Below are positions 9,417-39,638 of a DNA stretch of 64,000 nt, one piece after another. The position numbers were made by a program, and so were the translations under genes. The notes under the pieces were generated by a model. The model ran no database searches and was not told the DNA's origin. It worked only from the letters and a program-made list of their open reading frames with translations. The DNA lies in NCBI GenBank assembly GCA_045593365.1, contig JAZNWO010000060.1, positions 3,350 through 67,349 on the forward strand, read 5' to 3'. This DNA is from Candidatus Avelusimicrobium sp. (GTDB taxonomy: Bacteria; Elusimicrobiota; Elusimicrobia; Elusimicrobiales; Elusimicrobiaceae). Position 1 is the first letter of the stretch; each line of letters starts with the position of its first letter.

Positions 9417-10139
9417 TTATTCAATACCAACAGCAGAACAATCTGTTTTGGCATGAAATTCAGCATTTGTATCTGTGGCATCTACAATTTTTCCACGCCA
9501 CCACTGACATACTAATTTACGGGCACTTATATCTTCCGGTACGACTCCCAAAGCCCATTCCGGTTTATCTGCTAAATATACCAAGCCAATGCTGCCTCCA
9601 TTCAGCCAAGTATTTCCTGTAGTACCATCTTCCTTATATTGAGTTCGTAGTGTAATCCCACAAAATTTTCTAAAAGAACAACCAATATCATACGCTCCTA
9701 TATTTTTTAAACAATTTGCCCCTGCCGTACAAGGCACACCCGGTATTTCTATGCTTAATGCCCCGCTATTACTGCTACCTACAAACATGACATTTTTATT
9801 TGTCGGAAATCCATTTTCCAAAATATAGACCTCAATAGCTTGCTGAACAGGTTTAATCAAAGAAGCAAACTCTGCCAAACGAGCTAGTCGTACAGATTTC
9901 TGATATTGCGGCAGGGCAATCGCGGTCAGTACACCGATGATTAATACGACTACTAATAATTCTATAAGTGTAAAACCATTATTAAACAGAGTCGTCATTC
10001 CCGAGAGTCGCTGTCGGGAATCTCCCGCTTTTGTGCTGTGTATAAACAAGGATTTTCCCTTATTCATATCACCAATAAGGGAGATCCCCGATAAAAACAT
10101 TCGGGGATGACGACCCTTTTTTATTTCTTTTTTATTCAT
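9417..10139 (-). CDS. Type IV pilin-like (PilE family) prepilin with 55-aa REP-derived leader
   Basis: [26 protein letters not shown]-methylation motif; AGGAG RBS before MNKKE; C-terminal cysteines. Confidence 0.9.
   Translation of the reverse strand: MNKKEIKKGRHPRMFLSGISLIGDMNKGKSLFIHSTKAGDSRQRLSGMTTLFNNGFTLIELLVVVLIIGVLTAIALPQYQKSVRLARLAEFASLIKPVQQAIEVYILENGFPTNKNVMFVGSSNSGALSIEIPGVPCTAGANCLKNIGAYDIGCSFRKFCGITLRTQYKEDGTTGNTWLNGGSIGLVYLADKPEWALGVVPEDISARKLVCQWWRGKIVDATDTNAEFHAKTDCSAVGIE
9991..10114. repeat. CGTC-type REP doublet (REPIN-like) inside the prepilin leader coding sequence
   Basis: GTCGTCATTCCCGA..TCGGGAATCTCCC ... GGGAGATCCCCGA..TCGGGGATGACGAC: two hairpins in inverted orientation with terminal inverted repeats. 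Confidence 0.85.
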
Positions 10140-10158
10140 AATATTTTCTCCTTTCTTT

Positions 10159-10237
10159 GTCGTACTGAGTTGCTTCTGCTCAGCACCTCAACCTCTTTTT
10201 AAGGCTGAGGTCCTGAACAAAAACCTTTCAGGGCGAC
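10159..10237. repeat. Degenerate REP doublet (CCTGAA..TTCAGG type) in the pilin 5' UTR
   Basis: GTCGTACTGAG..CTCAGCACCT ... AGGTCCTGAA..TTCAGGGCGAC with GTCG/CGAC ends. Confidence 0.6.
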
Positions 10238-10264
10238 ATTTAAAAAATAACCACCTACCCCCAT

Positions 10265-10292
10265 ATCGTACCAAAAAAAAAAAACGAGTCAA
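10265..10292 (-). promoter_or_regulatory. Poly-T spacer promoter P1: TTGACT-CG-T12-GG-TACGAT (16-bp spacer)
   Basis: Read directly; same architecture at 8 pilin loci. Confidence 0.8.
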
Positions 10293-10399
10293 GAGGAAAC
10301 TGCACTTCTTGCCTTTTTCCGGCGAAAAAAAGCAAAAAATATATACAGAAAAGGTGCCCCCAACTTACACTACTACCGCCAGGCTGCACCTATGGAACG

Positions 10400-10957
10400 T
10401 TAGTCTATGTAGTAAAAGAAAGAATCGTTTGAAGTGGGCTTTCCACCTAAACTGCGGCAAATTTGATGGGATACTGTAGCAAAAGATTCCGTCGGTATAA
10501 ATATTCCCCCGCACAACATGGAATGTCGCTCTAAATTATTTCCGGTAGGATCTACTTTTGCATTGAAGAAAAGTATAAAAGGTGAAGACCAACCTTTTTC
10601 CTTGAGCGAAAGACTCACAAAACGGCAATTCGTAGGCTCCGTCGATCCATCGGCACAATGGATGCCCAAGTTGCCATTTTCGTACCAAGCCCATTGTTCC
10701 TGCAATTCTTCTGAAAAGTAGCTTTTATATTGAAAGCGATCCGGAATCAACTCTTTCAATTGCGCATTGGTCGGGTAGTAGCCATTAACGTCATAAAACA
10801 ATTGGACTTGCTGTGCGATGTTGCGCCCCAACGGCAGCAACTTGGCTACCCGCGCACGCCACACGGCCACGCGGTATTGCGGATACGAAACTGCCGCCAA
10901 AATGCCGATTATCAGCACCACTACCAGCATTTCAAGCAACGTAAAAGCTCTTTTCAT
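10400..10957 (-). CDS. Type IV pilin-like protein (no poly-T promoter)
   Basis: [28 protein letters not shown] motif. Confidence 0.9.
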   Translation of the reverse strand: MKRAFTLLEMLVVVLIIGILAAVSYPQYRVAVWRARVAKLLPLGRNIAQQVQLFYDVNGYYPTNAQLKELIPDRFQYKSYFSEELQEQWAWYENGNLGIHCADGSTEPTNCRFVSLSLKEKGWSSPFILFFNAKVDPTGNNLERHSMLCGGIFIPTESFATVSHQICRSLGGKPTSNDSFFYYID

Positions 10958-11025
10958 AGGCCTATTATAACAAATTATACGGACTTTTCCCCCTATTTTA
11001 TCCCCAAAATGTTAAAATAAAATGT

Positions 11026-13539
11026 ATGAGTATTGATAATTTTCAAGAGATTGATAAAAAGCAACAAGCCCGCTGGGAAAAGGAAAATCTTTTTGCCAGC
11101 CCCCGTCTGCCAAAAGACAAAAAGTTTTATTGTTTAGATATGTTTCCGTATCCGTCAGGTGCGGGTCTGCACGTAGGCCATCCGGAAGGTTATACCGCAT
11201 CCGATATTTTAACGCGCTATAAACTAATGAGTGGGTTTGATGTGCTGCATCCCATGGGCTGGGACGCCTTCGGTTTGCCCGCCGAAAACTACGCCATTGC
11301 CACCGGGATTCACCCGGCTATCACTACTCAAAAAAACATAGACAATTTCCGCCGTCAAATTAAATCTCTTGGGCTAGCGTACGATTGGAACCGCGAAATC
11401 AATACCACCGACCCGGATTATTACAAATGGACCCAATGGATTTTCTTGCAACTGTTCAAAAAAGGTCTTGCCTATGAATCCACCGTGCCTATAAACTGGT
11501 GTCCGTCGTGTAAAACCGGGCTTGCCAATGAAGAAGTGTTTAACGGTAAATGCGAGCGCTGCGGCCACCCGATTGAACGCAAAATGCTGCGCCAATGGAT
11601 TTTGAAAATTACCACCTATGCCGAACGCCTTTTGCAAGATTTAGACGGGCTAGATTGGCCTGAAAGTACGCTCCTAATGCAAAAAAACTGGATTGGCAAG
11701 AGCCAAGGGGCAGAGGTAACGTTTGGGCTGGATGGCAGTAATGAAAAATTAACCGTTTTTACTACTCGTCCCGATACGCTGTTCGGAGCGACCTATATGG
11801 TCGTGTCGCCGGAACATCCGGCCTTGGCTCATATCGTAACCGACGCACAAAAAGAAGCAGTCAAAAATTATCAGGCCGCCGCCGCTAACAAGAGCGATTT
11901 GGAGCGCGCTGACTTGAATAAGGATAAAACAGGTGTGTTTACCGGTGCTTATGCCATTAATCCCGTCAACGGCAAAAAAATCCCAGTATGGACGTCTGAT
12001 TATGTGCTGATGGGTTACGGTACGGGCGCGATTATGGCCGTACCCGCACACGATGAGCGCGACTATGCCTTTGCCAAAAAATTTGGTTTGGAAATCATTG
12101 AAGTTATCAAAAGCGAACAGGGCGTGGCCGATGCCGCTTTTACGGGCGACGGTGAACTGATTAATTCCGGCTTTTTAAACGGTCTGCACGTGCAAGACAG
12201 CAAGGCCAAAATGATTGCGTGGCTGACCGAAAAGGGCCTGGGTAATGCCAAAACTACCTACAAGTTACGTGATTGGGTATTTGCCCGCCAACGCTATTGG
12301 GGTGAGCCTATCCCCCTCGTGCATTGTGACAAATGCGGTGTAGTGCCATTACCGGAAGAGCAATTACCGTTGCGCCTGCCCGAAATGAAGAATTTTGAGC
12401 CGTCCGGCACAGGTGAATCGCCACTGGCAAACGCAACCGAATGGTTGCATACCACATGTCCACAATGCGGCGGTCCGGCCTTGCGTGAAACTAACACCAT
12501 GCCCCAATGGGCAGGCTCTTGTTGGTATTATCTGCGTTATATGGACCCGCATAACGATAAGGCTCTCATTGACCCGGAAATTGAAAAAGCATACGGCCCG
12601 GTGGATTGCTACATCGGCGGGGCAGAACACGCCGTACTGCATTTACTGTATGCGCGCTTTTGGCACAAAGTGCTGTATGATTTGGGAGTAGTACACACTA
12701 AAGAGCCGTTTCAAAAATTGCGCCACCAGGGAATGATTTTAGCTTTTTCGTACCGCGATAAATTAGGCGCCTATCACGGTTATGAGGAAATAGATTTCAA
12801 AGACGGTAAAGCCTTCTTAAAAACTACCAAAGAGGAATTATCCCCCATGGTAGAAAAGATGTCCAAATCCAAAAAGAATGTCATTAATCCAGACGACATT
12901 TTAAAAGATTATGGTGCCGATGCTTTCCGTATGTATGAAATGTTTATGGGGCCGTTTGAGGCTAGCAAGCCCTGGGATATGAAAGGCATTGAAGGAATTA
13001 GCCGCTTTTTAAAACGCATTACCGGTTGGAACGAAAGCGTCAAATTAACCACAGCAACCAATCCCAAGGAAATTGAAATTTTGAAGCATAAAACTATTGC
13101 CAAAGTGACAGACGATATTGAAAACTTACGTTTCAATACGGCTATTTCGGCTCTTATGGTACTGTTTAACGAAATCAGCAAACTAGATGCCGTGGATCAA
13201 GATACGTTTGATACTTTTCTTAAACTCTTGCATCCGTTTGCCCCGCACTTGACAGAGGAAATTTGGCAAACTAGCGGACGTCCGGACTTTTTAGTTAAAC
13301 AGCCCTGGCCCGTTGCTGACAATAGTTTAATTGCCCAAGAAATGATTGAAATCGGCGTACAGGTCAACGGGAAAGTGCGTGACCGTATCAAAATAATCGC
13401 TACCGCTTCTAAAGAAGAGCTGGAACAAGCTGCTCGTAACAGCGAAAAAATCCAGCGCTATTTAGACGGCTGCGAAGTAAAAAAAGTTATTATTGTGCCG
13501 GGCCGCATTGTGAATTTCATCGCAGCCCCCAAAAAATAG
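11026..13539 (+). CDS. leuS: Leucine--tRNA ligase
   Basis: [14 protein letters not shown] (HIGH) and KMSKS motifs, CP1 editing domain TTRPDT. Confidence 0.98.
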
Positions 13540-13546
13540 GAGAATT

Positions 13547-14128
13547 ATGAAGAAAATACTTGCTGCAATATGCTGCACACTTTGCTTGGCTGCTTGTGGC
13601 AGCGAAGGATCTTTTTATCGTCCGCAAGCGCAAATCATGCCACAACACATCCGCAAAGTAGCTATCCGCCCGATATTAAACAAGACGGAAATCTTTGCTA
13701 TGGAAGATAAACTATATTTGCAATTGTACGATGAATTTCTGAAAAACGGTACGTACCAAATTGTCAGTGAAAATAACGGCGCTGAAGGAGTCATTGTAAC
13801 GACTATTACCCGCTATTTAAACGTACCTGTCCAATACGACAGCCAGCTCATCCCAACCGTCTACAAAATGGACGTATGGCTGGATATCGTGCTGATAGAT
13901 AAAACCACCAATCAGCCTGTCTGGCGTGAGCCGGCTTTCCTGGGTACACAAACTTATTCTGCCTCAACCTTACCCGGCGGAATAACCGAGCAACAGGCCC
14001 GGGAACTGATTTGGCAGAAACTTTCTAAGGATATTGTGAAACGTACGGTAGACGGGTTTGGCTCTGTGATGAGCGAGGACAAACGCAAGGTAATGCAAAA
14101 CCCTGAGTACACCACCATCACACAATAA
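13547..14128 (+). CDS. lptE: LptE-family lipoprotein
   Basis: Lipobox LAAC; conserved leuS-lptE-holA gene order. Confidence 0.75.
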   Translation: MKKILAAICCTLCLAACGSEGSFYRPQAQIMPQHIRKVAIRPILNKTEIFAMEDKLYLQLYDEFLKNGTYQIVSENNGAEGVIVTTITRYLNVPVQYDSQLIPTVYKMDVWLDIVLIDKTTNQPVWREPAFLGTQTYSASTLPGGITEQQARELIWQKLSKDIVKRTVDGFGSVMSEDKRKVMQNPEYTTITQ

Positions 14129-14129
14129 T

Positions 14130-15146
14130 ATGGCTAAATCCACCGCTGATAAAATTGCCAAAACACTTGAAAAAGGAAAAATATCCCCGGTTTATTTGCT
14201 AACCGGGGAGGATTTGTTCCGCAAGAAGGAATTAATCGGTAAAATTACAGCGGCAGTTCACCCGGATGATTTTAATATTTTTTCCTCTTCCGCCGACCAA
14301 GCAGATATGGGCGAAGTGCTAGCACTAGCTAACACGGCACCTGTCTTTTCAGAACGCCGCTTAGTGATATTAACTGGCATTGAGAAATTGCGCAAAAATT
14401 CAAAAGAGGCTCTGCTGCATTATTTAGAAAATCCACTAGAAACTACGGTGTTAATTCTTACGCACAACGATAACAAGAAATTTAAAACGGAAAAGTCACT
14501 GGCGGCCCTGGCAGCCGAACACGGCGAGATGGCTAATTTAGATGAATTAAAGCGACAGGAACTTTCCTTATGGGTCAGTGCACGTTTTCAAACGCAGGGA
14601 ATGAATGCAGGATATGAGGCCGTGGAAACCTTGTGTGAAATTGTCGGCGGGGATTTAAACGCTTTATCACAAGAGATAGAAAAACTGGCCCTGTATACCG
14701 CCGGGCGCAGCAAAAAAGATATTTCTAAAGAGGACATTTTGGTATGCGTTGGATTTTCAAAAGAAGAAAACCCGTTTGAACTTTCAAATGCTGTGCAAAA
14801 TATGAACAAAAAGAAAGCCTTGGCTATGGCGGACAAATTATTAAACAGCGGAGAGGAACCCGTTGCCGTACTTGGCAAAATTTCATATCCGGTACTTAAA
14901 ATGGCACGGGTCAAATATTTGCTCACCGCCGGCGTGCCCAGTGCCGATATTTTGCATACGGCCGGTCTGTCTTTTTGGGAAACGTCTTTTCTTAATAATG
15001 CGCGGCACTATCCGTCTAAAGAGATTTTCCTAAAGACCTTGGACCGCATTATTGAAGCTGACAAGGCACTCAAAACCTCCACCGCCTCCGACCCCAAAAC
15101 ACTGATTAAAGGGGTTTTAATGACCTTGCTTGCAGGAAATAAATAA
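14130..15146 (+). CDS. holA: DNA polymerase III delta subunit
   Basis: PVYLLTGED, ANTAPVFSERRLV and LSQEIEKLALY motifs; synteny. Confidence 0.9.
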   Translation: MAKSTADKIAKTLEKGKISPVYLLTGEDLFRKKELIGKITAAVHPDDFNIFSSSADQADMGEVLALANTAPVFSERRLVILTGIEKLRKNSKEALLHYLENPLETTVLILTHNDNKKFKTEKSLAALAAEHGEMANLDELKRQELSLWVSARFQTQGMNAGYEAVETLCEIVGGDLNALSQEIEKLALYTAGRSKKDISKEDILVCVGFSKEENPFELSNAVQNMNKKKALAMADKLLNSGEEPVAVLGKISYPVLKMARVKYLLTAGVPSADILHTAGLSFWETSFLNNARHYPSKEIFLKTLDRIIEADKALKTSTASDPKTLIKGVLMTLLAGNK

Positions 15147-15305
15147 TTTTTCCTTCCTTTAAATAATTTACAAATTCTCCTTGCTTACAAGCCGTTTTTT
15201 ATTATTTTCCACCTAAGAAAGACAAATAAATAAGCGTCCATCCTAAGATACTGTTATACTCAGACTATATTTAAGCGTAAAAGTTGGAAAAAGTGAAGGT
15301 AGGCC

Positions 15306-15333
15306 TTGACTCGTTTTTTTTTTTTGCTAAATT
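15306..15333 (+). promoter_or_regulatory. Poly-T spacer promoter P2: TTGACT-CG-T12-GC-TAAATT (16-bp spacer)
   Basis: Read directly. Confidence 0.8.
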
Positions 15334-15415
15334 ATACTTAGGTGTTGGTTGTAAGATATTATTTGTTAACTTAACTTGCGACTAGTCGCAAGGTTACAAA
15401 AAGACAGGAGACAAT

Positions 15416-16093
15416 ATGAAAGAAATAATAAACAAAATCATAAATAAGGTCCATCCTGAGGGATCGTTACTCAGGATCTACAACTTCCTGGGCAGTTGCC
15501 TCTTTGACAGGACAGCACAAAAGCAAGAGACCCTGAATAACAACCCTTCAGGGTGGACTTCTTTTTTAGGTGTGCGGGCATTTACACTCATTGAACTACT
15601 CGTCGTAGTCCTTATTATCGGCATACTGGCTGCTATTGCCCTGCCGCAATATCAAAAAGCAGTATATAAAAGCAGATACGCAACTATAAAATCATTAGTG
15701 CGCAGTATAGCCGACGCACAAGAAGTTTACTACTTGGCAAACGATAGATATGCAGCCTCTTTTGATGACTTGGATATAGATACTCCCGGAGGTTGGAGTG
15801 TGCCAGAGGAGAAAGAAGTAGATAAAGACACACGCCAATTTTCTTGGGGAAAATGTGGACTGGAAACTGCTGTAGCAAACTGTAGCATACCAACTTCAAA
15901 CAGTTATTTGGAATATAACATTTTCTTATCCAAGGCAGAAAATGTACTGGCAAACTATCGGGGAAAAAGTGTTTGTCTAGCCGGAAACGATGATTTAACT
16001 TCTGTTGAAAATCAAATCTGCAAAGCCGAGACTCAACTGTCCAGTCCCTCTTACACGGCTGGCGGACACGCAGTATGGAGATATGACAACTAA
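15416..16093 (+). CDS. Type IV pilin-like prepilin with 55-aa REP-derived leader
   Basis: [25 protein letters not shown]; ACAGGAG RBS. Confidence 0.9.
   Translation: MKEIINKIINKVHPEGSLLRIYNFLGSCLFDRTAQKQETLNNNPSGWTSFLGVRAFTLIELLVVVLIIGILAAIALPQYQKAVYKSRYATIKSLVRSIADAQEVYYLANDRYAASFDDLDIDTPGGWSVPEEKEVDKDTRQFSWGKCGLETAVANCSIPTSNSYLEYNIFLSKAENVLANYRGKSVCLAGNDDLTSVENQICKAETQLSSPSYTAGGHAVWRYDN
15449..15558. repeat. GTCCA..TGGAC palindromic doublet inside the prepilin leader
   Basis: GTCCATCCTGAG..CTCAGGATCT ... AGACCCTGAA..TTCAGGGTGGAC, 110 bp; second copy at 23950-24059. Confidence 0.8.
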
Positions 16094-16274
16094 CTATATC
16101 CCGCACAGAAACCATGTGGGATAACGGTGGAACAGACAGAATTTACTTACCGTACCGCGCACGCGAAGCGAATGTGCGTTGGCTATTCTGATTTTTCATG
16201 CCGTTCAGCAAAGCGCGGTATTGCGAAACATTATATGATTTTTCAAAACCGCTTTTAGTTGGCGGGATATAGTT
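16092..16274. mobile_element. MITE-like or structured element with 13-bp terminal inverted repeats
   Basis: AACTATATCCCGC (16092-16104) and GCGGGATATAGTT (16262-16274); internal 8-bp stem TACCGCGC/GCGCGGTA; no coding capacity. Confidence 0.35.
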
Positions 16275-16360
16275 GCCCGTATGGGCGTAGCATAAGCTAC
16301 GTCAAGGGCAAGAGACCGCCAAATAAACAGGTTTTGGAAAATTGTTTATCCTAAAAAGCA

Positions 16361-16391
16361 AGACGGAACAAATCGTTGATTTGTTCCGTCT
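16361..16391 (-). terminator. Intrinsic terminator of the hyd operon
   Basis: 13-bp stem AGACGGAACAAAT/ATTTGTTCCGTCT, followed by a T-run on the minus strand. Confidence 0.75.
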
Positions 16392-16420
16392 GCGAAAAAC
16401 TACAGTAGCACCAGCAGTTT

Positions 16421-18154: not shown

Positions 18155-18163
18155 AAATCGCTC

Positions 18164-20516: not shown

Positions 20517-20630
20517 GGAAAGTCTCCTTAGAATAATTACAAAACAGGCTGCTCAATTGGCTGTGGGAAAAACAACTTTTCCGTTACATAACGTAACCTG
20601 TCGGTTATGCTATATAACCCCTCCGTTATA

Positions 20631-21056
20631 TTATATATAATTTGACAGGCGTACGGAAGCACAAAGCTTTTGGCCGACTAGGGAACCCTCCTCATATTCA
20701 CAGGCAATAGCCCCCGTATCTAAGCTAACCGTAAACCATTGCGGATATTTTGTGCTTTGTGCCTGTAGTTGTTGGGCTTCCTTGAGTTGAAAGGTATAAC
20801 CCGGGCAAGCAAGTGCACTGTGCCCGTCCAGCACTGTTTCCGTGCAAGAGGTTTGAGGTAAGAAACTGGCAAAATCAGCTGTATAGTAACCGTTTTTTTC
20901 AAAAAAGGTTTGCTCTGCACGCGCTAACCCGCGCGCAGTTTGTGCTGCTTGGCGGGCATGGCGTTCATCTATATGACGACGAACTGCCGGCAAAGCTAAT
21001 CCTAACCCAAATCCGGCCAACAAAATAACAATTAACATAACCCGGTGTAAACTCAT
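20631..21056 (-). CDS. Atypical pilin-like protein lacking the canonical G/F methylation motif
   Basis: N-terminal hydrophobic helix followed by LARAEQTFFEKNGYYTADF, matching the pilin alpha-1 end seen in the paralogues; C-terminal Cys pairs. Confidence 0.6.
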   Translation of the reverse strand: MSLHRVMLIVILLAGFGLGLALPAVRRHIDERHARQAAQTARGLARAEQTFFEKNGYYTADFASFLPQTSCTETVLDGHSALACPGYTFQLKEAQQLQAQSTKYPQWFTVSLDTGAIACEYEEGSLVGQKLCASVRLSNYI

Positions 21057-22956: not shown

Positions 22957-23472
22957 CTACTTATAACTCCAACGTATCAAATTATATTTTGCACTTGAGT
23001 CGCCATTCCCCGTCTTACCTGCTTCTGCCTTACAAATCCGCGCACGCCAATCCTGTTGGTCTGTAGTTCCCAAAATAGCACACGAACGCAACCCGCTGGA
23101 CGCATCTTTTCTATATTCCATATTTATCACAGAATCCTCACACCAAGAAATTCCAGCTGTGTTTTTATCTATTTCACAATTTCCCCAATCATAGTAGCGA
23201 TGGTGTTTTTGCAAATCCTGTTCATCCTCTGCTTCTCCGCTGATAGTACCGCCAGGCATATCGATATCCAATTCATCAAAATCAGTGGAGTACCGCCCGT
23301 TTGCCAAATAATACACTACTTGTGCTTGAGAAATTGCTTCCACTAAGTTTTTAAGTCTTACATAGCGTGTCTTTGCTACTGCCACACGATATTGCGGCAA
23401 GGCAATGGCCGCCAATATGCCGATGATAAGAACAACTACTAATAATTCAATCAATGTAAATGCTTTCCTCAT
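22957..23472 (-). CDS. Type IV pilin-like protein (short leader)
   Basis: [28 protein letters not shown]. Confidence 0.92.
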
Positions 23473-23506: not shown

Positions 23507-23533
23507 ATTATGCCAAAAAAAAAAACGAGTCAA
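23507..23533 (-). promoter_or_regulatory. Poly-T spacer promoter P3: TTGACT-CG-T11-GG-CATAAT (15-bp spacer)
   Basis: Read directly. Confidence 0.75.
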
Positions 23534-23598
23534 GGGGTACTGTTTTTGGCGCAGCAAATGGCCTTCAAAAAACGGCAATAAAAAGAACATCAAATAAG

Positions 23599-23730
23599 GT
23601 TGTCATCCCCGAGGAATGTTGTCGGGGATATCCTGCTTATGGGCCGTTGTAAAATAAAGGAGTTTTTTCCTTATTTAATAAACGACACCCATAAGGGAGA
23701 TTCCCGACAGCGACACTCGGGAATGACGAC
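23599..23730. repeat. CGTC-type REP doublet between divergent pilin promoters
   Basis: GTTGTCATCCCCGA..TCGGGGATATCC ... GGAGATTCCCGA..TCGGGAATGACGAC. Confidence 0.85.
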
Positions 23731-23806
23731 TTTTTTATTTGTCGGGCGGAGCACAACCTACATTTCCATATTTTCAGCATAAAACTTAAAAAAGTGAAGG
23801 TAGGCC

Positions 23807-23834
23807 TTGACTCGTTTTTTTTTTTTGGTAAATT
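23807..23834 (+). promoter_or_regulatory. Poly-T spacer promoter P4: TTGACT-CG-T12-GG-TAAATT (16-bp spacer)
   Basis: Read directly. Confidence 0.8.
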
Positions 23835-23916
23835 ATCTATAGCTGTAGATTGCAAGATATTATTTGTTGACTTGCCTTGCGACTCGTCGCAAGAGTACAA
23901 AAAGACAGGAGACAAT

Positions 23917-24600
23917 ATGAAAGAAATAATAAACAAAATCATAAATAAGGTCCATCCTGAGAATACATTACTCAGGATCTACAACTTCCTGGGTAGTTGC
24001 TTTTATCGCAAAACAACACAAAAGGGAGAGACCCTGAATTACAACATTTCAGGGTGGACTTCTTTTTTAGGTGTGCGGGCATTTACACTCATTGAATTAT
24101 TAGTTGTTGTATTAATCATCGGCATATTGGCGGCGGTGGCGCTGCCGCAGTACCAAGTGGCGGTACTCAAAAGCCGCACCATGGGTTTCATGCCGCTCAT
24201 GAAGGCAATAGAAGAAGCAGAACTTGTGTATCGATTGGCTAATGGAAATTTTACCACTGATTTTACAGAATTGGATATAAGCTTACCCGGCGGTGGTAGC
24301 CTAGAAGAAGAAACATTAGAATCCGGGGTCTACCAAAACAAGTTGGTTTTTTCAAATTTCACTTGTTATTTACAAGACCAAAATCTGCCGGAAGATACCT
24401 ATGTTAAAGATAACTATATTTCGCTGACGTGTTCATACACTAATACAAATGCCCCAATACTGGAGCGGTATTTCTTACGTAACTATTGGTATTGCTGGGA
24501 CGGAAAAAGCGAAATGGGCAGTAAAGTCTGTAAGGCCATTTCCGGCCGCACGACCAACAATGATTCTAGCGGCAAGAAAGGTAAAGGATATACATTCTAA
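23917..24600 (+). CDS. Type IV pilin-like prepilin with 55-aa REP-derived leader
   Basis: Leader near-identical to that of 15416; [25 protein letters not shown]; ACAGGAG RBS (the GTG start in the ORF track lies in the promoter). Confidence 0.9.
   Translation: MKEIINKIINKVHPENTLLRIYNFLGSCFYRKTTQKGETLNYNISGWTSFLGVRAFTLIELLVVVLIIGILAAVALPQYQVAVLKSRTMGFMPLMKAIEEAELVYRLANGNFTTDFTELDISLPGGGSLEEETLESGVYQNKLVFSNFTCYLQDQNLPEDTYVKDNYISLTCSYTNTNAPILERYFLRNYWYCWDGKSEMGSKVCKAISGRTTNNDSSGKKGKGYTF
23950..24059. repeat. GTCCA..TGGAC palindromic doublet inside the prepilin leader (copy 2)
   Basis: Colinear with 15449-15558; stems conserved, loops differ. Confidence 0.8.
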
Positions 24601-27436: not shown

Positions 27437-27440
27437 AATT

Positions 27441-27908
27441 CTAATACTCCCAGGAAGTATATCCTTCGTTCACTCTTCCCGCTCCGCCTGTTTCTGCTTT
27501 GCATAATTTATTAGTAGGAGCATTTTCATCCTCACTAAAAGCCACGCAAATCCGTTTTCTGGATCGCGCAGCAAAATTTCCGCTTATATGATCATAGTAA
27601 ACCTGATATCCCACTCTTCCCGCGGCGGTTGTAATATTGCACATGGATTGGGTGGCACTGATACCACACCATCGCTTGCTGTCATTAGCGGGAAAATCTA
27701 TATCCAAATCCTCTACGCTGGTTGTGTAGGAACCGTTTGCCAAGTAATACACTTCCTGTGCATTTTTGATAGCGGTAACTAATTGTTTAACTGTAGCATA
27801 TTGCGTTTTAGCCACAGCCATTCTGTATTGCGGCAAGGCAATGGCGGACAAAATACCAATAATTAACACAACCACTAACAGCTCTATAAGCGTGAATGCT
27901 TTTTTCAT
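27441..27908 (-). CDS. Type IV pilin-like protein (short leader)
   Basis: [28 protein letters not shown]. Confidence 0.92.
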   Translation of the reverse strand: MKKAFTLIELLVVVLIIGILSAIALPQYRMAVAKTQYATVKQLVTAIKNAQEVYYLANGSYTTSVEDLDIDFPANDSKRWCGISATQSMCNITTAAGRVGYQVYYDHISGNFAARSRKRICVAFSEDENAPTNKLCKAETGGAGRVNEGYTSWEY

Positions 27909-30261: not shown

Positions 30262-30270
30262 ACAAATGTC

Positions 30271-33145: not shown

Positions 33146-33148
33146 AGT

Positions 33149-34527: not shown

Positions 34528-34528
34528 A

Positions 34529-35980
34529 TTACCAATGTAAATTCGGCTCGCGCGCCGCCCCCACCTCATCAATGCGACAAACGGGCTGGGTATGTGGAGC
34601 GTCTTTAACCAGTTGCGGATTTTGTTGTGCCTCTTCAAAGATGACACGCAACGCTCTGGCGAAAGCCTCCAGGACATCGCGGTTTTCCGTTTCCGTCGGC
34701 TCAATCATAATTGCTTCCGGTACAATCAGCGGAAAGTAAATGGTCGGCGCGTAAAAGCCGTAATCCAGCAAGCGTTTGGCTACATCGGTGGTGTGCACAC
34801 CATTCATTTTATCTTTCTGAATAGTCAGCACACATTCGTGCATACACGCGGTATCAAAGAAAGCCGGGAATGCGTCTTTCAAAAGTACGCGCATATAATT
34901 AGCGTTTAGTATGGCATTTTCAGCAATTTCTTTGAGTGTTTTTCCGTCAAACTGGCGCAAGTACGCATAGCCGCGTAAACACACAGCGATGTTACCATAA
35001 AAAGATTTCATCTTGCCCAAACTTTTCGGCATTTTGCCGCGCAAGGTAAATTTACCGTTGGGTAGTTTTTCCACCAGCGGTTTAGGCAGAAACGGCGCCA
35101 AATGTGCAGCCGCACCGACAGGACCAGAGCCCGGGCCGCCGCCGCCGTGCGGAGCCGCAAAGGTTTTATGTAAATTCAAATGCATAATATCTACGCCGAA
35201 GTCCGCGGGTTTGGCTACGCCGATGAGCGCATTAAAATTCGCGCCGTCCATATACAAAAGCGCGCCCGCTTTATGCACCATATCGGCAATTTGGCGAATA
35301 TCTTTTTCAAAAAGTCCGACGGTATTGGGAACGGTCAACATGACTACGGCTGTCCGTTCGGAAAGCGCATTTTGCAACGCATTCAAATCCACGCGTCCGT
35401 CGGAACCGGAATGAATATTAATCACTTTATACCCGGCCATATTAGATGTGGCAGGGTTCGTGCCGTGGGCTGTATCGGGCACAATCACCTCGGTACGCTT
35501 TTTATCTTTCTTGGCAGCAAAATACGCACGCGCCGTTAAAATACCCGTCAGCTCGCCATGCGCACCCGCCGCAGGTTGCAGCGTAAAAGCTGCCAGCCCG
35601 GTAATCTCTTTTAGCAGTTCTTGCAAGTTATATAAAATTTCCAACGTACCCTGCACCGCTTCTTCCGGTGCAAACGGATGCGCATTTACAAACCCATCCA
35701 ACGCGCTTAAGCGGTCATAGGCCTTGGGATTATATTTCATCGTGCAAGACCCCAACGGATAAAAATGACTGTCCAAGCAATAATTCTGCCGCGATAAATT
35801 GGTAAAGTGTCGCACCGTATCCTGTTCAGGCATTTCGGGCAGACGATCCACGCTTTTTCGCAAATATTTAGCCGGAATATATTTATCCGCGCTAAACTGC
35901 GGTTTTTCAAAACGCACACCGCGGCGGCCCGGGTAGGATTTTTCAATGCTTAGTTTGTTTGTCTGTAAAATTTCTTGCAT
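34529..35980 (-). CDS. gcvPB: Glycine dehydrogenase subunit 2
   Basis: YPLGSCTMKYNP, QPAAGAHGE and HLNLHKTF motifs. Confidence 0.96.
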   Translation of the reverse strand: MQEILQTNKLSIEKSYPGRRGVRFEKPQFSADKYIPAKYLRKSVDRLPEMPEQDTVRHFTNLSRQNYCLDSHFYPLGSCTMKYNPKAYDRLSALDGFVNAHPFAPEEAVQGTLEILYNLQELLKEITGLAAFTLQPAAGAHGELTGILTARAYFAAKKDKKRTEVIVPDTAHGTNPATSNMAGYKVINIHSGSDGRVDLNALQNALSERTAVVMLTVPNTVGLFEKDIRQIADMVHKAGALLYMDGANFNALIGVAKPADFGVDIMHLNLHKTFAAPHGGGGPGSGPVGAAAHLAPFLPKPLVEKLPNGKFTLRGKMPKSLGKMKSFYGNIAVCLRGYAYLRQFDGKTLKEIAENAILNANYMRVLLKDAFPAFFDTACMHECVLTIQKDKMNGVHTTDVAKRLLDYGFYAPTIYFPLIVPEAIMIEPTETENRDVLEAFARALRVIFEEAQQNPQLVKDAPHTQPVCRIDEVGAAREPNLHW

Positions 35981-35981
35981 A

Positions 35982-37304
35982 TTAAAACCCCCTCAACGCT
36001 TCTGCATAGGCTTGCAAATCTGCGTCGGTTTTGGTTTCGGTTACACAAACGAGCAAACAATTTTTCATTTCTTTGTTCACCTCTCCCAAATCATAACCGG
36101 CGGCAATTCCTTTTTTGGCTAGTTTTTTAATAACCTGTTTGGCCGGAACTTTTAGTTCCAATACAAATTCATTAAAGAAATAACCGTTAAATTTAAGTTT
36201 ATGCCCGCCCGCCTGCAAAAGTTCTGCTAAGCGGTGGGCTTTTTCCAAATTCAGCTCCGCCACTTCGCGTAGTCCCTCCGGTCCGAGCAGCGTCATATAA
36301 ATAACTGCATTTAAAGCACATAAAGCCTGATTGGAGCAAATATTGGAAGCGGCGCGTTCCCGGCGGATATGTTGCTCGCGCGCTTGCAAAGTCAGCACAA
36401 AACTGCGTTTGCCATTTTTATCCTTGGCCATACCTACAATGCGCCCCGGCACTTGACGGACAAATTCTTTTTTACACGTAAAAATGCCGAGTCCCGGCCC
36501 GCCGAAACTCATACGGTTTCCAAGCGGTTGTCCTTCGGCCACCGCAAAATCGGCACCGTATTGTCCCGGTGTGTGCAGTAGCGGCAAGGCCAGCGGTTTG
36601 GCTACCGCTACCAACAGTGCGCCCGCTTTGTGCACGAGGTCCGCAACATCTTCCAGCGGCTCTAATTGCCCCAAGAAATTCGGCCCCGCCACCACAAAGC
36701 CTGACACGTCCGGCGTGAGCTGTTTTTCCAGTTCGGCTAAATCTACGGTACCATTTGACAACGGTATTTCTTTAAGTTTCAATTCCGGTACATATTTCAG
36801 ATAGGTTTTCAGTACTTCTTTATAGTGTGGGTGAAGTCCGGCGGAATATAAAATTGTATGGCGGTTGTTCACGCGTAAACACGCCGCGGCGGCCTCTGCC
36901 ATGGCGGTTGCCCCGTCGTAGTGAGAAGCACTGCACACGTCCATATCAAACAACGCGCAAATACAACTTTGAAATTCGTAAATCGTTTGCAGCGTACCTT
37001 GGCTGGCCTCGGCCTGATACGGTGTGTAAGCAGCTAAAAATTCACCGCGGCTGCTTAACGCATTAACCGCCGCCGGGATAAAATGTTCCTCACAACCCGC
37101 GCCGATAAAATTAGAAAGCGGTTTGTTTTTGGCGGCCATTTCTTGCAAATGGCGCGTAAGAGCTTGCTCTGTTAGCGCAGCAGGCAAATTTAATTTTGGG
37201 TACAGTAACTCTTGCGGAATTTGTTTTAACAGGTCCCGCACATCCTCCGCACCGATTTTCTGAAGCATTATTTTTTTATCTTCTGGGGTATGGGGCGTAA
37301 ACAT
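35982..37304 (-). CDS. gcvPA: Glycine dehydrogenase subunit 1
   Basis: YTPYQAEASQG, REQHIRRERAASNICSNQAL motifs. Confidence 0.96.
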   Translation of the reverse strand: MFTPHTPEDKKIMLQKIGAEDVRDLLKQIPQELLYPKLNLPAALTEQALTRHLQEMAAKNKPLSNFIGAGCEEHFIPAAVNALSSRGEFLAAYTPYQAEASQGTLQTIYEFQSCICALFDMDVCSASHYDGATAMAEAAAACLRVNNRHTILYSAGLHPHYKEVLKTYLKYVPELKLKEIPLSNGTVDLAELEKQLTPDVSGFVVAGPNFLGQLEPLEDVADLVHKAGALLVAVAKPLALPLLHTPGQYGADFAVAEGQPLGNRMSFGGPGLGIFTCKKEFVRQVPGRIVGMAKDKNGKRSFVLTLQAREQHIRRERAASNICSNQALCALNAVIYMTLLGPEGLREVAELNLEKAHRLAELLQAGGHKLKFNGYFFNEFVLELKVPAKQVIKKLAKKGIAAGYDLGEVNKEMKNCLLVCVTETKTDADLQAYAEALRGF

Positions 37305-37342
37305 AAAATCCTCTAAAAACCCCGCCCTTAGGCGGGGATAAA

Positions 37343-37723
37343 TTATTTGTCTAAAGTCGCCTTGTACGCTTGCAGCGTTAACAGTGCGTCATATTCTGCC
37401 GGATTACTAGCTTTGATTTTAAAAAGCCACCCATCCTCATGTGCAGCACGGTTGACCAGAGCGGGATCATCTGAAACGGCTTGGTTAACTTCCACAATTT
37501 CCCCACTGACAGGAGCATAAATTTCACTGGCAGATTTTACAGATTCAATTACACAGCAGTTTTGTCCGGCAGTAACCTGTGTACCGGTTTTGGGCAAATC
37601 CACAAATACAATATCACCGATTTCCTGTTGGGCATATTCACTAATGCCCACAGTGGCTACTCCATTCTCCAAATAAGCCCATTCATGGGTCTTAGCATAT
37701 TTACTGTTTTCTGCGTTGTGCAT
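37343..37723 (-). CDS. gcvH: Glycine cleavage system H protein
   Basis: THEW, GDIVFVDLP and lipoyl-Lys ESVKSAS motifs. Confidence 0.96.
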   Translation of the reverse strand: MHNAENSKYAKTHEWAYLENGVATVGISEYAQQEIGDIVFVDLPKTGTQVTAGQNCCVIESVKSASEIYAPVSGEIVEVNQAVSDDPALVNRAAHEDGWLFKIKASNPAEYDALLTLQAYKATLDK

Positions 37724-37732
37724 ACTTCCTCC

Positions 37733-38812
37733 TTATACCCGGTTTTGATAAAACGGTGTTTTCACTTTCTTGGCCGGAATTTTACGGCCGTGTATTTCAA
37801 TTTCTACCACGTCGCCTTCTTTCAAATCGGTATCAGCATAGCCAACGGCAATTCCCTTAAAAAGAGGCGAGAAAGTGCCGCTGGTCACTACTCCTTTTTC
37901 CACGCCGTCTTTATATACTTTACATCCTTCGCGCGGTACACCCGGCGCCGTTAGCATAAAACCGGTAAGACGCTGTTTAATCCCTTTGACTTTCTGGGCT
38001 GACAGAGCATCCTGTCCGATAAAATATTCTTTATCTAATTTTACCACCCAGCCGCAATTTGCTTCGTACGGAGTTTGGGTGCCATTGGCATCCACGCCGT
38101 TAAGTAAATATCCGGCTTCCAAACGCAACACATCGCGTGCGCCCAACCCGCATGGTTTTACGCCTGCGTTTTTCAACACCTTCCATAATTCTATAATTGC
38201 CGTTGGCGGCAGCATAATTTCTACGCCGTCCTCGCCGGTATATCCGGTGCGGGTTACATATCCCCGTGCCCCAAAAAGCTCTATTTCCTTTATAGTAAAA
38301 CGTGGCATTTCTTGTACGCCCGGAATTTGATTAGCCGCATATTCTAAGGCCTTGGGCCCTTGCAGGGCTATCATACCCCAATGGTCACTGTCATTGGTAA
38401 TTTGCACTTCAAAACCGACAGATTGTTTATTAAACCATGCCATATCCGTATCAATACAAGCGGCATTTACCACGACCAAATATTTTTCGGGAGTCAAAGC
38501 AAAAGAAATAGCATCGTCAATAATACAACCGTTTTCGTCCACGATGTGGGAATAGGTGCCTTTGAATTGCGTGCGTTTGATAATATTAGTGTTGACGTAT
38601 TGCAAAAATTTCCATGTATCTTTGCCCTCCACCCATATTTGGCCCATGTGCGATACATCAAACATTCCCGCCGCTTCGCGCACGGCTTTATGTTCTGCCA
38701 AAATACTGTCAAACTGCACGGGCAACAACCACCCGTGGAAATCTACCATTTTCCCGCCGGCTGCTTCGCACGCGTCGCACAGCGGTGTTTTCTTTAAATT
38801 ATTTGTGTTCAC
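37733..38812 (-). CDS. gcvT: Glycine cleavage system aminomethyltransferase
   Basis: LKKTPL, FDVSHMG, RTGYTGEDG and GLGARDVLRLEAG motifs; GTG start after GGAGG. Confidence 0.95.
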   Translation of the reverse strand: MNTNNLKKTPLCDACEAAGGKMVDFHGWLLPVQFDSILAEHKAVREAAGMFDVSHMGQIWVEGKDTWKFLQYVNTNIIKRTQFKGTYSHIVDENGCIIDDAISFALTPEKYLVVVNAACIDTDMAWFNKQSVGFEVQITNDSDHWGMIALQGPKALEYAANQIPGVQEMPRFTIKEIELFGARGYVTRTGYTGEDGVEIMLPPTAIIELWKVLKNAGVKPCGLGARDVLRLEAGYLLNGVDANGTQTPYEANCGWVVKLDKEYFIGQDALSAQKVKGIKQRLTGFMLTAPGVPREGCKVYKDGVEKGVVTSGTFSPLFKGIAVGYADTDLKEGDVVEIEIHGRKIPAKKVKTPFYQNRV

Positions 38813-38893
38813 CTTTCCTCCGCTTGTATAAGAGTATTGTATAAAATATGGACCCAAAAAACTGCTATATGCTGAAAAAAGTGAAGGTAGGCC

Positions 38894-38920
38894 TTGACTC
38901 GTTTTTTTTTTTGGTAAATT
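38894..38920 (+). promoter_or_regulatory. Poly-T spacer promoter P6: TTGACT-CG-T11-GG-TAAATT (15-bp spacer)
   Basis: Read directly. Confidence 0.8.
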
Positions 38921-39002
38921 ATCTGTAGCTGTAAATTGCAAGGAATTATTTTTTGACACCCCTTGCGTGATAGCGCAAGAGTACAAAAAGACAGGAGAAT
39001 AT

Positions 39003-39638
39003 ATGAAAGAAAATAAAAAAATATTTCAAAAAGGATGTCATCCCCGAGTGTTCCTATCGGGGATCTCCCTTATTGGTTATACAAATAAGAGAAAAGCGGA
39101 ATATTCCCGATTACAACCTTCGGCAATGACGGCCCTATTTAATAACGGCTTTACACTCATTGAACTACTCGTCGTTGTCCTTATCATTGGCATACTGGCG
39201 GCGATTGCCTTACCGCAATACAGAAAGGCTGTTATGAAAGCGCGTTTTACACAGCTTAAAGTATTAGCACACAGTTTGGCTCAAGCTGAGGAAGTTTATC
39301 ACCTAGCAAACGGACAATATGCCACCAAGCTGGAATATTTGGATATACAAATGCCCGGAGGACAACTTAATACCAGTGATGATAATCACGCCCGTTATGA
39401 CTGGGGACTTTGTTATTTAGATATAAAAGATTCTGATACGAAAACCAATCAAGTGGCTTGTAAAAATAAAGATATGAACATGGAATATCAAGTACGTTTG
39501 CATTTTGCAAATAACTCCGATACTCGGGTTTGCATCGCATTTAATACAGACTTATCATCCCCGCAAAATCAAATCTGTAAAGGAGAAACGGGCAACACAG
39601 GAACAGATTACACCACCTATACTGCTTGGAACTATTGA
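39003..39638 (+). CDS. Type IV pilin-like prepilin with 49-aa REP-derived leader
   Basis: [25 protein letters not shown]; ACAGGAG RBS. Confidence 0.9.
   Translation: MKENKKIFQKGCHPRVFLSGISLIGYTNKRKAEYSRLQPSAMTALFNNGFTLIELLVVVLIIGILAAIALPQYRKAVMKARFTQLKVLAHSLAQAEEVYHLANGQYATKLEYLDIQMPGGQLNTSDDNHARYDWGLCYLDIKDSDTKTNQVACKNKDMNMEYQVRLHFANNSDTRVCIAFNTDLSSPQNQICKGETGNTGTDYTTYTAWNY
39037..39130. repeat. CGTC-type REP doublet inside the prepilin leader
   Basis: GTCATCCCCGA..TCGGGGATCTCCCTTATTGG ... ATTCCCGA..TCGGCAATGAC. Confidence 0.8.

Follow-up and report, generated by a model that had tools for sequence, protein, structure and literature searches.

Why should some type IV pilin genes of one bacterium carry leaders about ten times the usual length, and what is the additional sequence of which these leaders are made? 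The window analysed here, a 64-kb stretch of DNA from a gut Elusimicrobiaceae MAG, contains nine type IV pilin genes as found by six-frame motif search and translation, five with leaders of 4-5 aa and four with leaders of 49-55 aa. The preliminary description of this DNA had already set these four genes against their short-leader paralogues and had attributed the extra sequence to palindromic repeats; the search confirms the contrast, the element coordinates given there (9991-10114, 39037-39130, 15449-15558 and 23950-24059) are correct, and the leader peptides quoted are exact. The nine genes are as follows (an arrow marks the cleavage site):

9417..10139, minus strand: pilin gene A, leader of 55 aa (9975-10139), cleavage-site motif G↓FTLIELL
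10400-10957, minus strand: short-leader pilin, leader MKRA
15416..16093, plus strand: pilin gene with GTCCA-type element G1, leader of 55 aa (15416-15580), cleavage-site motif A↓FTLIELL
22957-23472, minus strand: short-leader pilin, leader MRKA (MRKA↓F)
23917..24600, plus strand: pilin gene with GTCCA-type element G2, leader of 55 aa (23917-24081)
27441-27908, minus strand: short-leader pilin, leader MKKA
39003..39638, plus strand: pilin gene C, leader of 49 aa (39003-39149), SD AGGAG at 38993-38997
49285-49827, minus strand: short-leader pilin, leader MKKA
53834-54328, minus strand: short-leader pilin, leader MKSRA

The mature N-termini bear the hallmarks of proteins with class III signal peptides, namely a hydrophobic helix of about 21 residues and Glu at +5, and Pfam PF07963 (N_methyl) is precomputed for the pilin proteins. 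Class III leaders are reported to comprise 6-26 aa and to end invariably in Gly (PMC4471445), a length range that the four leaders of 49-55 aa exceed. Genes A and C encode G at position -1 and the two GTCCA-type genes encode A, which departs from the 'invariable Gly' (PMC4471445) yet is common among Elusimicrobiaceae pilins. Upstream, the pilin genes have in common a promoter-like block:

15305..15336, plus strand: promoter-like block, CCTTGACTCG-T12-GCTAAATTAT

This block recurs at 23806-23837, at 38892-38922 and, on the matching strand, upstream of the other pilin genes. The five short-leader paralogues have the SD-ATG context of the long-leader genes, without the element.

The extra leader sequence of the four genes is almost entirely hairpin-doublet repeat DNA belonging to two related families. 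A search of both strands for the CGTC-type arm, GTCATYCCCGA-N9-TCGGGRAT, with up to 3 mismatches returned 13 matches where shuffles predicted none, and the GTCCA-type arm was found four times, again with 0 expected by chance. The two palindromic families of the preliminary description are thus both present; what our analysis adds is that they are related to each other and that they extend to intergenic copies (B, D and a solo arm), so that the 64 kb hold seven element loci, four CGTC and three GTCCA, with 4/7 inside ORFs:

9994..10111 (9991-10114 in the preliminary description), minus strand: CGTC-type element A, 118-nt hairpin doublet of two inverted arms
23602..23727, no strand assigned: CGTC-type element B, 126 nt, in the intergenic region that separates the divergent pilins 22957-23472 and 23917-24600
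39037..39130, plus strand: CGTC-type element C, 94 nt, right arm decayed
49979..50085, no strand assigned: CGTC-type element D, intergenic, right arm lost
15236..15266, plus strand: decayed solo GTCCA-type arm, AAATAAGC-GTCCATCCTAAG, with an A-rich flank as in the full copies
15449..15558, plus strand: GTCCA-type element G1, 110-nt hairpin doublet GTCCATCCTGAG-N9-CTCAGGATC ... GACCCTGAA-N-TTCAGGGTGGAC
23950..24059, plus strand: GTCCA-type element G2, stems and flanks as in G1, loops and centre diverged

The four CGTC-type copies (A-D) form a single family in alignment, A-rich termini included, and since the A-rich extensions of element A reach approximately 9975-10136, nearly the whole leader of gene A is element. 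The elements fold as long hairpins, leaving SD and ATG outside; the very stable ones (-55 to -73 kcal/mol) begin 11-14 codons into the ORF, within its first 170 nt. The RNA of element A forms a near-perfect hairpin (-73 kcal/mol, z -8.3), G1 folds at -55 kcal/mol (z -3.6), and element C, the centre of which is 24 nt shorter than that of A by a difference that is in frame, folds with z -1.9. Intergenic copies of both families adjoin pilin promoters: element D, which is 87% complementary to B, precedes the start of pilin 49285-49827 by 150-260 nt, and the solo arm lies upstream of the promoter of pilin 15416. The two GTCCA leaders stand within a 300-nt block that is 89% identical, so that independent insertion events are not required and one event plus duplication may account for both. 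Rfam returns no match in the window except a tRNA.

As to whether these repeats are read through, the preliminary description had proposed an AGGAG ribosome-binding site before each element and an open frame across it, and both are borne out: AGGAG stands 5-8 nt before the upstream ATG in every long-leader gene of the window (8 nt before the ATG at 10139 in gene A; at 15406-15410 in pilin 15416..16093, plus strand), and each of the four leader copies is open in one frame of six, the one used. The repeats inside the leaders keep the frame, and the leaders are therefore about ten times as long as usual. Intergenic elements B and D have TAA where the leader copies read Q, and B contains stop codons in the frames equivalent to the leader frames and differs in length modulo 3. 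Broken leader frames are rare in relatives: in a set of 14 pilin genes from several MAGs, each with a long 5' region, all 14 have the SD-ATG in the reading frame of the mature pilin, and 13 of the 14 used frames are open as opposed to 0/28 off-frames; 'bystander' genes, the loci of which had been fetched for another reason, are open in five of six cases. In the L085 pilin (minus strand, F codon at 6850), four stops interrupt the leader frame, and open frames are therefore not universal. At the sequence level, no SD serves any other in-frame start within or downstream of the leader elements in the window or in the 14-gene set. Of the two outcomes that the preliminary description had named as refuting its reading, a start beyond the repeats and leader frames often broken in orthologues, neither is borne out by the sequences.

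The history of one insertion can be read from an empty site. Locus L106, the mature pilin of which is 84% identical, aligns with positions 38888-39660 of the window, where the two have promoter, UTR hairpin, SD and ATG in common, and lacks exactly the 135 nt (45 codons) that are present in pilin gene C. The insert lies between ATGAAA and GC.TT.AC, its exact junction masked by 18% divergence, and the alignment shows that the element was inserted downstream of the authentic start codon. The mature part of pilin C has a dN/dS of 0.10 relative to its homologue, at a dS of 0.96. At another locus, L004, an imperfect 12-nt direct repeat flanks a single hairpin.

Long leaders recur across the family. 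A leaderless query identified leaders of at least 25 aa in 34 of 99 homologues, none of which starts at an element-internal ATG; approximately one third of Elusimicrobiaceae pilin homologues thus have leaders of 25-137 aa, drawn from several palindromic families in both orientations (among them the unrelated CPPCGENV.., HPELDSGS.. and VGMRDI..). A phmmer search with a 55-aa leader against 1.84e9 representative proteins returned 34 matches, comprising 26 pilins with the leader directly before FTLIELL, one leader-only ORF and seven unrelated repeat proteins, and any two of the 26 pilin clusters headed by homologous leaders have less than 50% identity. In 69 long leaders of relatives (25-137 aa), which are hydrophilic and basic, the median net charge is +7 and only one has a charge of 0 or below. 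Among the close homologues of one pilin, some lack any element and others have one of the GTCCA type or of the CGTC type; those of pilin 15416..16093 designated P0153, P0154 and P0156 have leaders of 5-6 aa. The same hairpin also occurs extragenically and in multiple copies in unrelated contigs.

We consider it probable that REPIN/MITE-like elements repeatedly enter the stretch of Lys codons of the leader, are translated and are then removed by prepilin peptidase. In such a scheme, small non-autonomous palindromic hairpin doublets, with a core of 94-126 nt and A-rich inverted ends, would enter the prepilin leader after codon 2 (ATG AAA ...) and before the last one or two leader codons. The ancestral promoter would still direct transcription, and the ancestral SD and ATG would still direct the start of translation. 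By reading through the element, the ribosome would produce a basic leader of 49-55 aa, or of as many as 137 aa in other members of the family, which the positive-inside rule would keep in the cytoplasm, and prepilin peptidase would cut at G/A↓F, so that the mature pilin would be unchanged. It is known that the prepilin leader stays cytoplasmic and that cleavage takes place on the cytoplasmic face (PMC4471445). As the leader would be translated and then cut off, an insertion would be tolerated only with its frame kept open, and selection for pilin expression would filter or repair the copies (TAA to CAA, indels in multiples of three). Family membership, the empty site, frame conservation, the lack of a rival SD-served start in the genes covered and recurrence in both orientations all lend this reading support from sequence; from them we infer translation, cleavage, near-neutrality and a means of mobilisation or targeting. 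The earlier proposal that the leader is a safe harbour for a selfish repeat fits all the data, the empty-site homologue included, with translation and cleavage as predicted steps, and the recurrence of such leaders across the family suggests that selfish DNA can lodge safely in the part of the protein that is thrown away. By way of counterpoint, the four long window leaders are 2-5 times longer than the reported 6-26 aa and half of them have Ala as their last residue, and a hairpin of -55 to -73 kcal/mol early in an ORF could slow ribosomes down or become a target of RNase III.

Four alternatives to this reading deserve mention. Pilin translation might begin downstream of the element, which would then be a 5'UTR or an upstream ORF, and candidates are available in the ATG of the element-terminal ATGAC (MTTLFNNG↓F, MTALFNNG↓F), an in-frame ATG at the right end of CGTC-type elements, or in the GTG of GVRA↓F; moreover, the database protein P0007 (MTTLFTNS↓F) and the gene call L085 6413-6883 (MVPSFDDSASA↓F) begin there, and in L085 the upstream frame is closed. 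These candidates, however, have no SD, while AGGAG precedes the start of all other pilin genes by 5-8 nt, and the ATG sits in the 3' stem of the hairpin. Such a start needs no open upstream frame, yet the 14-gene set is in frame throughout and open in all but one gene against none of the 28 off-frames, and any ribosome that loads at the ancestral SD-ATG, which is retained, would in any case continue into the pilin, all of which renders a downstream start very unlikely. That the long-leader genes are inactivated or decaying, their open frames being a by-product of recent insertion, agrees with the one decayed case (L085 6850) and with the young appearance of the near-perfect hairpin of element A. 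This view strikes us as extremely improbable in the face of the low dN/dS (0.10 at dS 0.96) of mature pilin C, the intact promoter and SD, the presence of homologous leaders on 26 pilin clusters with mutual identities below 50%, and element C, which is old (part of its hairpin and 24 nt lost) yet in frame.

The other two alternatives bear on how the elements arrived and why they are kept. One or a few ancient insertions could have spread among paralogues by homologous recombination or gene conversion rather than by transposition into each leader, with flanking homology supplied by the conserved promoter and SD on one side and by the invariant coding sequence of the mature N-terminus on the other. 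Many genes do have the same right junction (..SGMT.LFNNG↓F), two otherwise divergent pilin genes have the 300-nt 5' block in common, some leaders are chimeric (P0120 joins a GTCCA left half to a CGTC right half), and cleavage-site remnants occur upstream of the insert in some leaders; we regard such spread as possible, if tentatively so. The occurrence of both orientations, of several unrelated palindromic families (CPPCGENV.., HPELDSGS.., VGMRDI..), of intergenic copies and of identical stems interleaved with divergent loops, unlike a simple conversion tract, nonetheless means that several independent insertions would still be required. Alternatively, the hairpins may be exapted and kept for an effect on the mRNA, be it slower translation, a half-life set by RNase III (as for Correia elements in Neisseria) or a choice of the paralogue expressed, which would be compatible with in-frame translation. 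Very stable hairpins in the first 170 nt of the ORF fit such a role, processing by RNase III has been documented for mRNAs that contain MITEs (PMC10969869), and the G1 and G2 leaders differ at 0/103 stem and flank positions versus 19/62 loop and centre positions and 9/37 neighbouring, mostly synonymous positions. Conserved stems with variable loops are also found, however, in intergenic copies and in unrelated organisms, so that the pattern is a family property for which no leader-specific function is needed, and in element C the hairpin has decayed (z -1.9) but the frame is intact; we hold an mRNA effect to be unlikely.

In-frame palindromic elements are already known, e.g. the RPEs of Rickettsia, of which Ogata et al. 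2000 is said to contain the original reports, and the pilin-leader case is a variant. RPEs are palindromic elements of approximately 100-150 bp in several families that lie in frame in protein-coding genes and are translated as an extra peptide (PMC10969869). The window elements likewise use the one ORF-compatible frame within a protein-coding gene; RPEs, however, occupy many unrelated genes and are kept in the mature protein, whereas the insertions seen here concern one gene family and only its cleaved segment, in a different phylum, the likeness being one of organisation.

REP and REPIN sequences, to which the repeats had previously been assigned, are normally extragenic and present in many copies (PMC3116915, PMC3337134, PMC3686654). 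The REP/RAYT label is provisional here. The likeness lies in the architecture, short GC-rich hairpins with conserved stems and variable loops, joined as inverted doublets into one long hairpin, as in A, B, C, G1 and G2 (fold z -8.3, -3.6, -1.9), and not in the head: in REPs the palindrome comes after a 5'-terminal tetranucleotide, GT(A/G)G (PMC3686654), whereas the heads here are CGTCAT, TGTCAT, GGTCAT or GGTCCAT (YGTCAT in short), with 4/7 window loci inside ORFs. A 'CGTC-tagged REP class' was not confirmed in the literature searched, nor was there a Y1_Tnp match indicating a RAYT among ten unassigned window ORFs or among the Pfam domains precomputed for the fetched loci; the window and fetched loci, a fraction of any one genome, yielded no transposase or autonomous IS. 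The elements have the traits of MITEs, being small, non-coding and multi-copy, with TIRs ending in A-rich sequence (..AAATAAGGTTGTCAT / ATGACAACCTTATTT..) and a core of 94-126 nt. Correia elements (CREE), ERIC, BOX and Nezha are alike in being non-coding, with terminal inverted repeats, next to or inside genes; Correia elements have features of their own in a promoter, IHF, a TA duplication and restriction to Neisseria. Correia elements and other MITEs can be co-transcribed, can be RNase III substrates and can form in-frame fusions (PMC10969869), and no paper in the literature searched describes MITEs that settle systematically in signal or leader peptides.

It is rather doubtful, in our view, that the leader is an actively targeted site rather than merely one in which chance insertions survive, the element or a transposase recognising the A-tract/TTTAC junction with which pilin genes begin at their 5' end; a duplication that accompanies insertion may in that case restore the cleavage site. 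Were this so, the hairpins would join pilin biology through post-transcriptional choice among dozens of paralogues or, alternatively, through recombination that shuffles 5' cassettes, as do the repeats flanking pil loci in Neisseria, and a bacterial MITE would have a dedicated safe harbour in a leader peptide, with the longest class III signal peptides known.

Type IVb leaders have about 15-30 aa. The long leaders resemble type IVb/Flp prepilins in having a hydrophilic, basic cytoplasmic extension, here predicted to be cut by prepilin peptidase, ahead of a hydrophobic helix with Glu5 (PMC4471445); they differ in that the mature N-terminus is type IVa-like, that they reach 49-55 aa, or 137 aa in relatives, and that they consist of repeat DNA and not of a conserved peptide. 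The ORFs scanned in the window and fetched loci include no peptidase A24 (prepilin peptidase) gene. T2SSE ATPase genes adjoin pilin genes in two of the fetched loci, L101 and L103.

Nine type IV pilin genes were located in the window by six-frame motif search and translation, all with the same kind of mature N-terminus (23 residues, not shown here). Five of them have leaders, the segment preceding the cleavage site, of 4-5 aa (MKRA, MRKA, MKKA, MKKA and MKSRA), and the other four have leaders of 49-55 aa made of in-frame palindromic repeat DNA, which confirms what a preliminary description had read from the sequence:

9417-10139, minus strand: pilin A, 55-aa leader
15416-16093, plus strand: pilin with a 55-aa leader
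23917-24600, plus strand: pilin with a 55-aa leader
39003-39638, plus strand: pilin C, 49-aa leader
15305-15336, 23806-23837, 38892-38922, and on the minus strand 10269-10300, 23514-23540, 49870-49900, 54373-54405: copies of a promoter-like block

This block, CCTTGACTCG-T11-12-GGTAAATTAT, is strongly conserved and common to all nine genes, and its retention across the paralogues suggests common transcriptional control. An AGGAG Shine-Dalgarno sequence (SD) lies 5-8 nt upstream of the ATG in all nine; in the four long-leader genes the upstream ATG is the sole in-frame start so equipped, and not a start downstream of the repeats such as the preliminary description had considered. Homologues are annotated as Elusimicrobiaceae MAG prepilins, and gut MAGs of yak, roe deer and reindeer are the source of the related loci. 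Directly upstream of the SD, the long-leader genes, whose 5'UTR is longer, have a near-perfect palindrome, CTTGCGAC-TA-GTCGCAAG and variants (15375-15392, 23876-23893, 38963-38981 and about 10160-10185 on the minus strand), whose stems vary in sequence from gene to gene with pairing preserved; it is absent from the short-leader genes of the window and occurs in close homologues of the long-leader genes (contigs L106, L001, L107 and L098). A 141-aa ORF (20631-21056, minus strand) with a hydrophobic N-terminal helix and pilin-like downstream motifs, lacking the G|FTLIE motif and any Pfam match, may be a degenerate pilin.

The repeats are built from two types of hairpin arm, arranged as inverted doublets. 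The CGTC-type arm, GTCATYCCCGA-N9-TCGGGRAT, matches 13 times on both strands of the window and never in shuffles, while the GTCCA-type arm, GTCCATCCTGAG-N9-CTCAGGATC, matches four times against none expected and has partner arms of the form ..GACCCTGAA-N-TTCAGGGTGGAC:

9994-10111: CGTC-type element A, in a leader
23602-23727: CGTC-type element B, intergenic
39037-39130: CGTC-type element C, in a leader
49979-50085: CGTC-type element D, intergenic, right arm lost
15449-15558: GTCCA-type element G1, in a leader
23950-24059: GTCCA-type element G2, in a leader
15236-15266: decayed solo GTCCA-type arm, upstream of a pilin promoter

These arms are the only hairpins with an 8-bp stem and a 9-nt loop in the window, and none is farther than about 320 nt from a pilin start, B and D being 130-320 nt upstream of one. 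Elements A to D align as a single family whose likeness extends past the hairpins into A-rich inverted ends (..AAATAAGGTTGTCAT / ATGACAACCTTATTT..), so that the codons for ..KEIKKG and ..LFNNG are themselves element sequence. The two families are related, since the GTCCA type shares this architecture and a similar A-rich flank and one homologous leader (P0120) is a chimera of GTCCA and CGTC sequence. The doublet folds, as RNA, into a single long hairpin (A, -73 kcal/mol, z -8.3; G1, -55, z -3.6; C, -39, z -1.9) with the SD and ATG outside it. Rfam matched nothing in the window besides one tRNA gene (47713-47785, plus strand), and Pfam found neither a Y1 transposase nor a prepilin peptidase among ten unassigned ORFs of the window. 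The CGTC-type hairpin was also seen in 42 stretches of IMG/VR contigs (L110-L151, GC 32-65%), frequently with multiple intergenic copies on one strand of a contig, and the arm type is thus far wider than the Elusimicrobiaceae; pilins are absent nearby except in L130, an Elusimicrobia-like pilin whose 21-aa leader holds a single hairpin.

An empty site exists for pilin C. Its nearest relative, P0002, is 84% identical in the mature part and has the leader MKRA, and its contig (L106) aligns with 38888-39660 at 82% identity across the promoter block, the 5'UTR palindrome, the SD, the same ATG and the whole mature gene, the sole large difference being 135 nt (45 codons) extra in the window between ATGAAA and GC.TT.AC. 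By this alignment, the element is an insertion downstream of the true start codon. The mature parts differ with dS 0.96 and dN/dS 0.10, which places the gene lineage under purifying selection. The closest homologues of the pilin at 15416 likewise vary in leader state: P0153, P0154 and P0156 (70-74% identical) have leaders of 5-6 aa (e.g., MKKNKKA), P0155 (73%) bears a CGTC-type element, and P0232 a GTCCA-type leader. A word-index search queried with just the GTCCA leader gave no match even though P0120 and P0232 plainly carry it, so that this negative reflects the sensitivity of the index.

In each of the four leader copies of the window, the frame in use is the only one of six that is free of stops. 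The intergenic elements B and D, homologous to leader peptides of other genomes, have TAA where those leaders read Q or N (VVY*IRKK against VVNQIRKK), and B differs in length modulo 3 (126 against 118 and 94 nt), while A and C differ by 24 nt. We surveyed all Elusimicrobiaceae loci obtained, which contained 14 pilin genes in which over 60 nt separate the codon for the first mature residue (F) from the nearest strong SD-ATG upstream. The distance between the two is a multiple of three in all 14, and the used frame is open in 13, against none of 28 off-frames (1-6 stops each), so the frequent breakage of leader frames in orthologues that the preliminary description had allowed for is not what is found. 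The 14 include six bystanders, genes on loci that had been retrieved for another reason, and five of these are open. The exception, L085 (minus strand, 6850-7100, F codon 6850; MKKG.., 246 nt from the SD-ATG, in frame, four stops), has a 31-codon upstream ORF, also called in another sample (L087 2-94), with three or four hairpin arms behind it; the leader may have decayed, or the gene may rely on reinitiation or an element-internal ATG. Were frames often broken, a gene caller would fall back to such an internal ATG; among 99 pilin homologues retrieved with a leaderless query none starts there, and 34 have leaders of at least 25 aa.

The phenomenon recurs across the family. A phmmer search of 1.84 billion representative proteins clustered at 50% identity, with the 55-aa gene A leader as query (E <=1e-3), gave 34 matches, namely 26 pilins, one leader-only ORF (P0148) and seven unrelated repeat proteins; given the clustering, the 26 are different pilins, and in each the homologous leader (53-99 aa) stands immediately before FTLIELL. 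Conservation tracks DNA structure, with stem residues constant (RHSR/RHPR .. SGIS; GDPR/GDSR .. SGMT) and loop residues variable. The leaders of P0012, P0120, P0155 and P0228 match element B in plus orientation and those of P0124, P0127 and P0135 in minus orientation, and other leaders derive from different palindromic families (CPPCGENV..LPPQGG, HPELDSGS, VGMRDI), which together require several independent insertions. The 69 long leaders are basic (median net charge +7; only one <=0). A standard review has the bacterial prepilin leader invariably ending in Gly (PMC4471445); here the residue before the cut is Ala in about half of the pilins (short leaders G 38, A 35, S 1; long leaders G 45, A 24). 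Remnants of a cleavage site and mature N-terminus occur upstream of the insert (MKKA-FTLI-[element]-G|FTLIELL; NTRRG-FTQ-..) in L101 10001-10165, L004 6285-6372, P0024, P0032, P0093, P0110, P0111, P0128 and P0131. The single 45-nt hairpin insert of L004 stands between the copies of an imperfect 12-nt direct repeat (CAGGGGTTTACC / CAAGGTTTTACC), which could be a target duplication regenerating the cleavage site or a product of paralogue recombination. Scanning genome contigs with the full prepilin gave four loci; scanning metagenome contigs with a mature-pilin alignment gave mostly distant environmental pilins among the matches listed, L005-L013 being useful. The searchable literature held no earlier description of Elusimicrobia pilins with such leaders, of palindromic repeats in prepilin leaders, or of the repeat string.

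During membrane insertion the prepilin leader stays in the cytoplasm, and cleavage at the cytoplasmic face, directly behind its final residue, leaves no cytoplasmic part (PMC4471445). An insertion between start codon and cleavage site should therefore be cheap provided that the frame is open and the extension hydrophilic and basic, and both are observed. Ribosomes would begin at the ancestral SD-ATG and translate on through the element, and prepilin peptidase would discard the extension. The sequences show the insertion, the frame conservation and the lack of an alternative SD, and support the proposal that the leader shelters a selfish repeat; that long leaders are translated, cleaved and neutral is inferred. 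As to why pilin genes are hit, an A-tract (ATG AAA AAA GC.) codes for the short leader and a T11-12 tract is part of the pilin promoter, and elements with A-rich ends are found in the window only at these two places. By rough estimate, the five short leaders total about 60 nt (about 110 nt if all nine genes were once short), well under 2% of the non-coding DNA of the window (about 6.7 kb over some 50 intergenic regions), yet they received at least 2-3 of about six independent element loci, a share hard to explain if random insertions simply survived there. Exchange of 5' cassettes among pilin genes by recombination probably contributed to the spread, in view of a shared 300-nt block, the chimeric leaders and the cleavage-site remnants.

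Translation from a downstream start (MT.LFNNG|F) is a most improbable alternative, since that start has no SD and would leave the frame conservation unexplained. A regulatory role of the hairpins, which is compatible with in-frame translation, seems unlikely though less so: between G1 and G2 all 103 stem and flank positions are identical, compared with changes at 19 of 62 in the loops and centre, and mRNAs carrying MITEs are known to be processed by RNase III (PMC10969869), but the same stem-conserved, loop-variable pattern is present in intergenic copies and in unrelated contigs of GC 32-65%. Pseudogenisation of the long-leader genes is contradicted by dN/dS, intact promoters and the breadth of the phenomenon. 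We also rejected a conserved functional peptide, as loops vary where stems do not and intergenic copies are homologous to leaders, and a hairpin bridging SD and start as in phage T4 gene 38, as the upstream ATG already stands at a proper distance from the SD, with 33 nt separating it from the base of the hairpin.

Among known systems, Rickettsia palindromic elements are functionally closest, being inserted in frame and translated (PMC10969869), whereas the present insertions lie in the one segment predicted to be discarded, and in one gene family. The label of REP in the preliminary description holds for the inverted-doublet architecture, which resembles REPINs (PMC3116915, PMC3337134, PMC3686654), but the defining GT(A/G)G head (PMC3686654) is absent and no RAYT was seen among the sequences examined, and we therefore do not file the elements as RAYT-type REPs; judged by sequence, they qualify descriptively as MITEs, apart from target duplication and a parent IS. 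Reported class III signal peptides have leaders of 6-26 aa (PMC4471445), shorter than the 49-55 aa found here, so the tolerated length would be extended several-fold, which bears on substrate recognition by prepilin peptidases. If our reading is true, a cleaved leader can absorb selfish DNA at almost zero cost and offers a clean natural test of how purifying selection acts on mobile DNA within reading frames, by removing stops and restricting indels to multiples of three; annotators would otherwise take about one in three Elusimicrobiaceae pilins for mis-called starts or odd 'domains'. Should the hairpins also regulate expression, or the leader be a target of the elements, pilin diversification would gain a new layer in this gut lineage rich in pilin genes.

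A prophage-like block (54400-64000) directly adjoins the pilin gene at 53834-54328, and other features accompany it in the window:

54983-55399: endolysin, prophage-like block
55902-56441: anti-repressor, prophage-like block
56494-58335 and 58310-59326: tail fibre/spike proteins, prophage-like block
60751-61257 and 61280-61933: internal virion proteins, prophage-like block
62572-63993: tail protein (phrog_376, E 2e-127), prophage-like block
42195-47519, minus strand: 1774-aa ORF
50152-51438, plus strand: ribosomal protein S2 gene with a Lys/Ala-rich repeated C-terminal tail (repeats 51255-51430)
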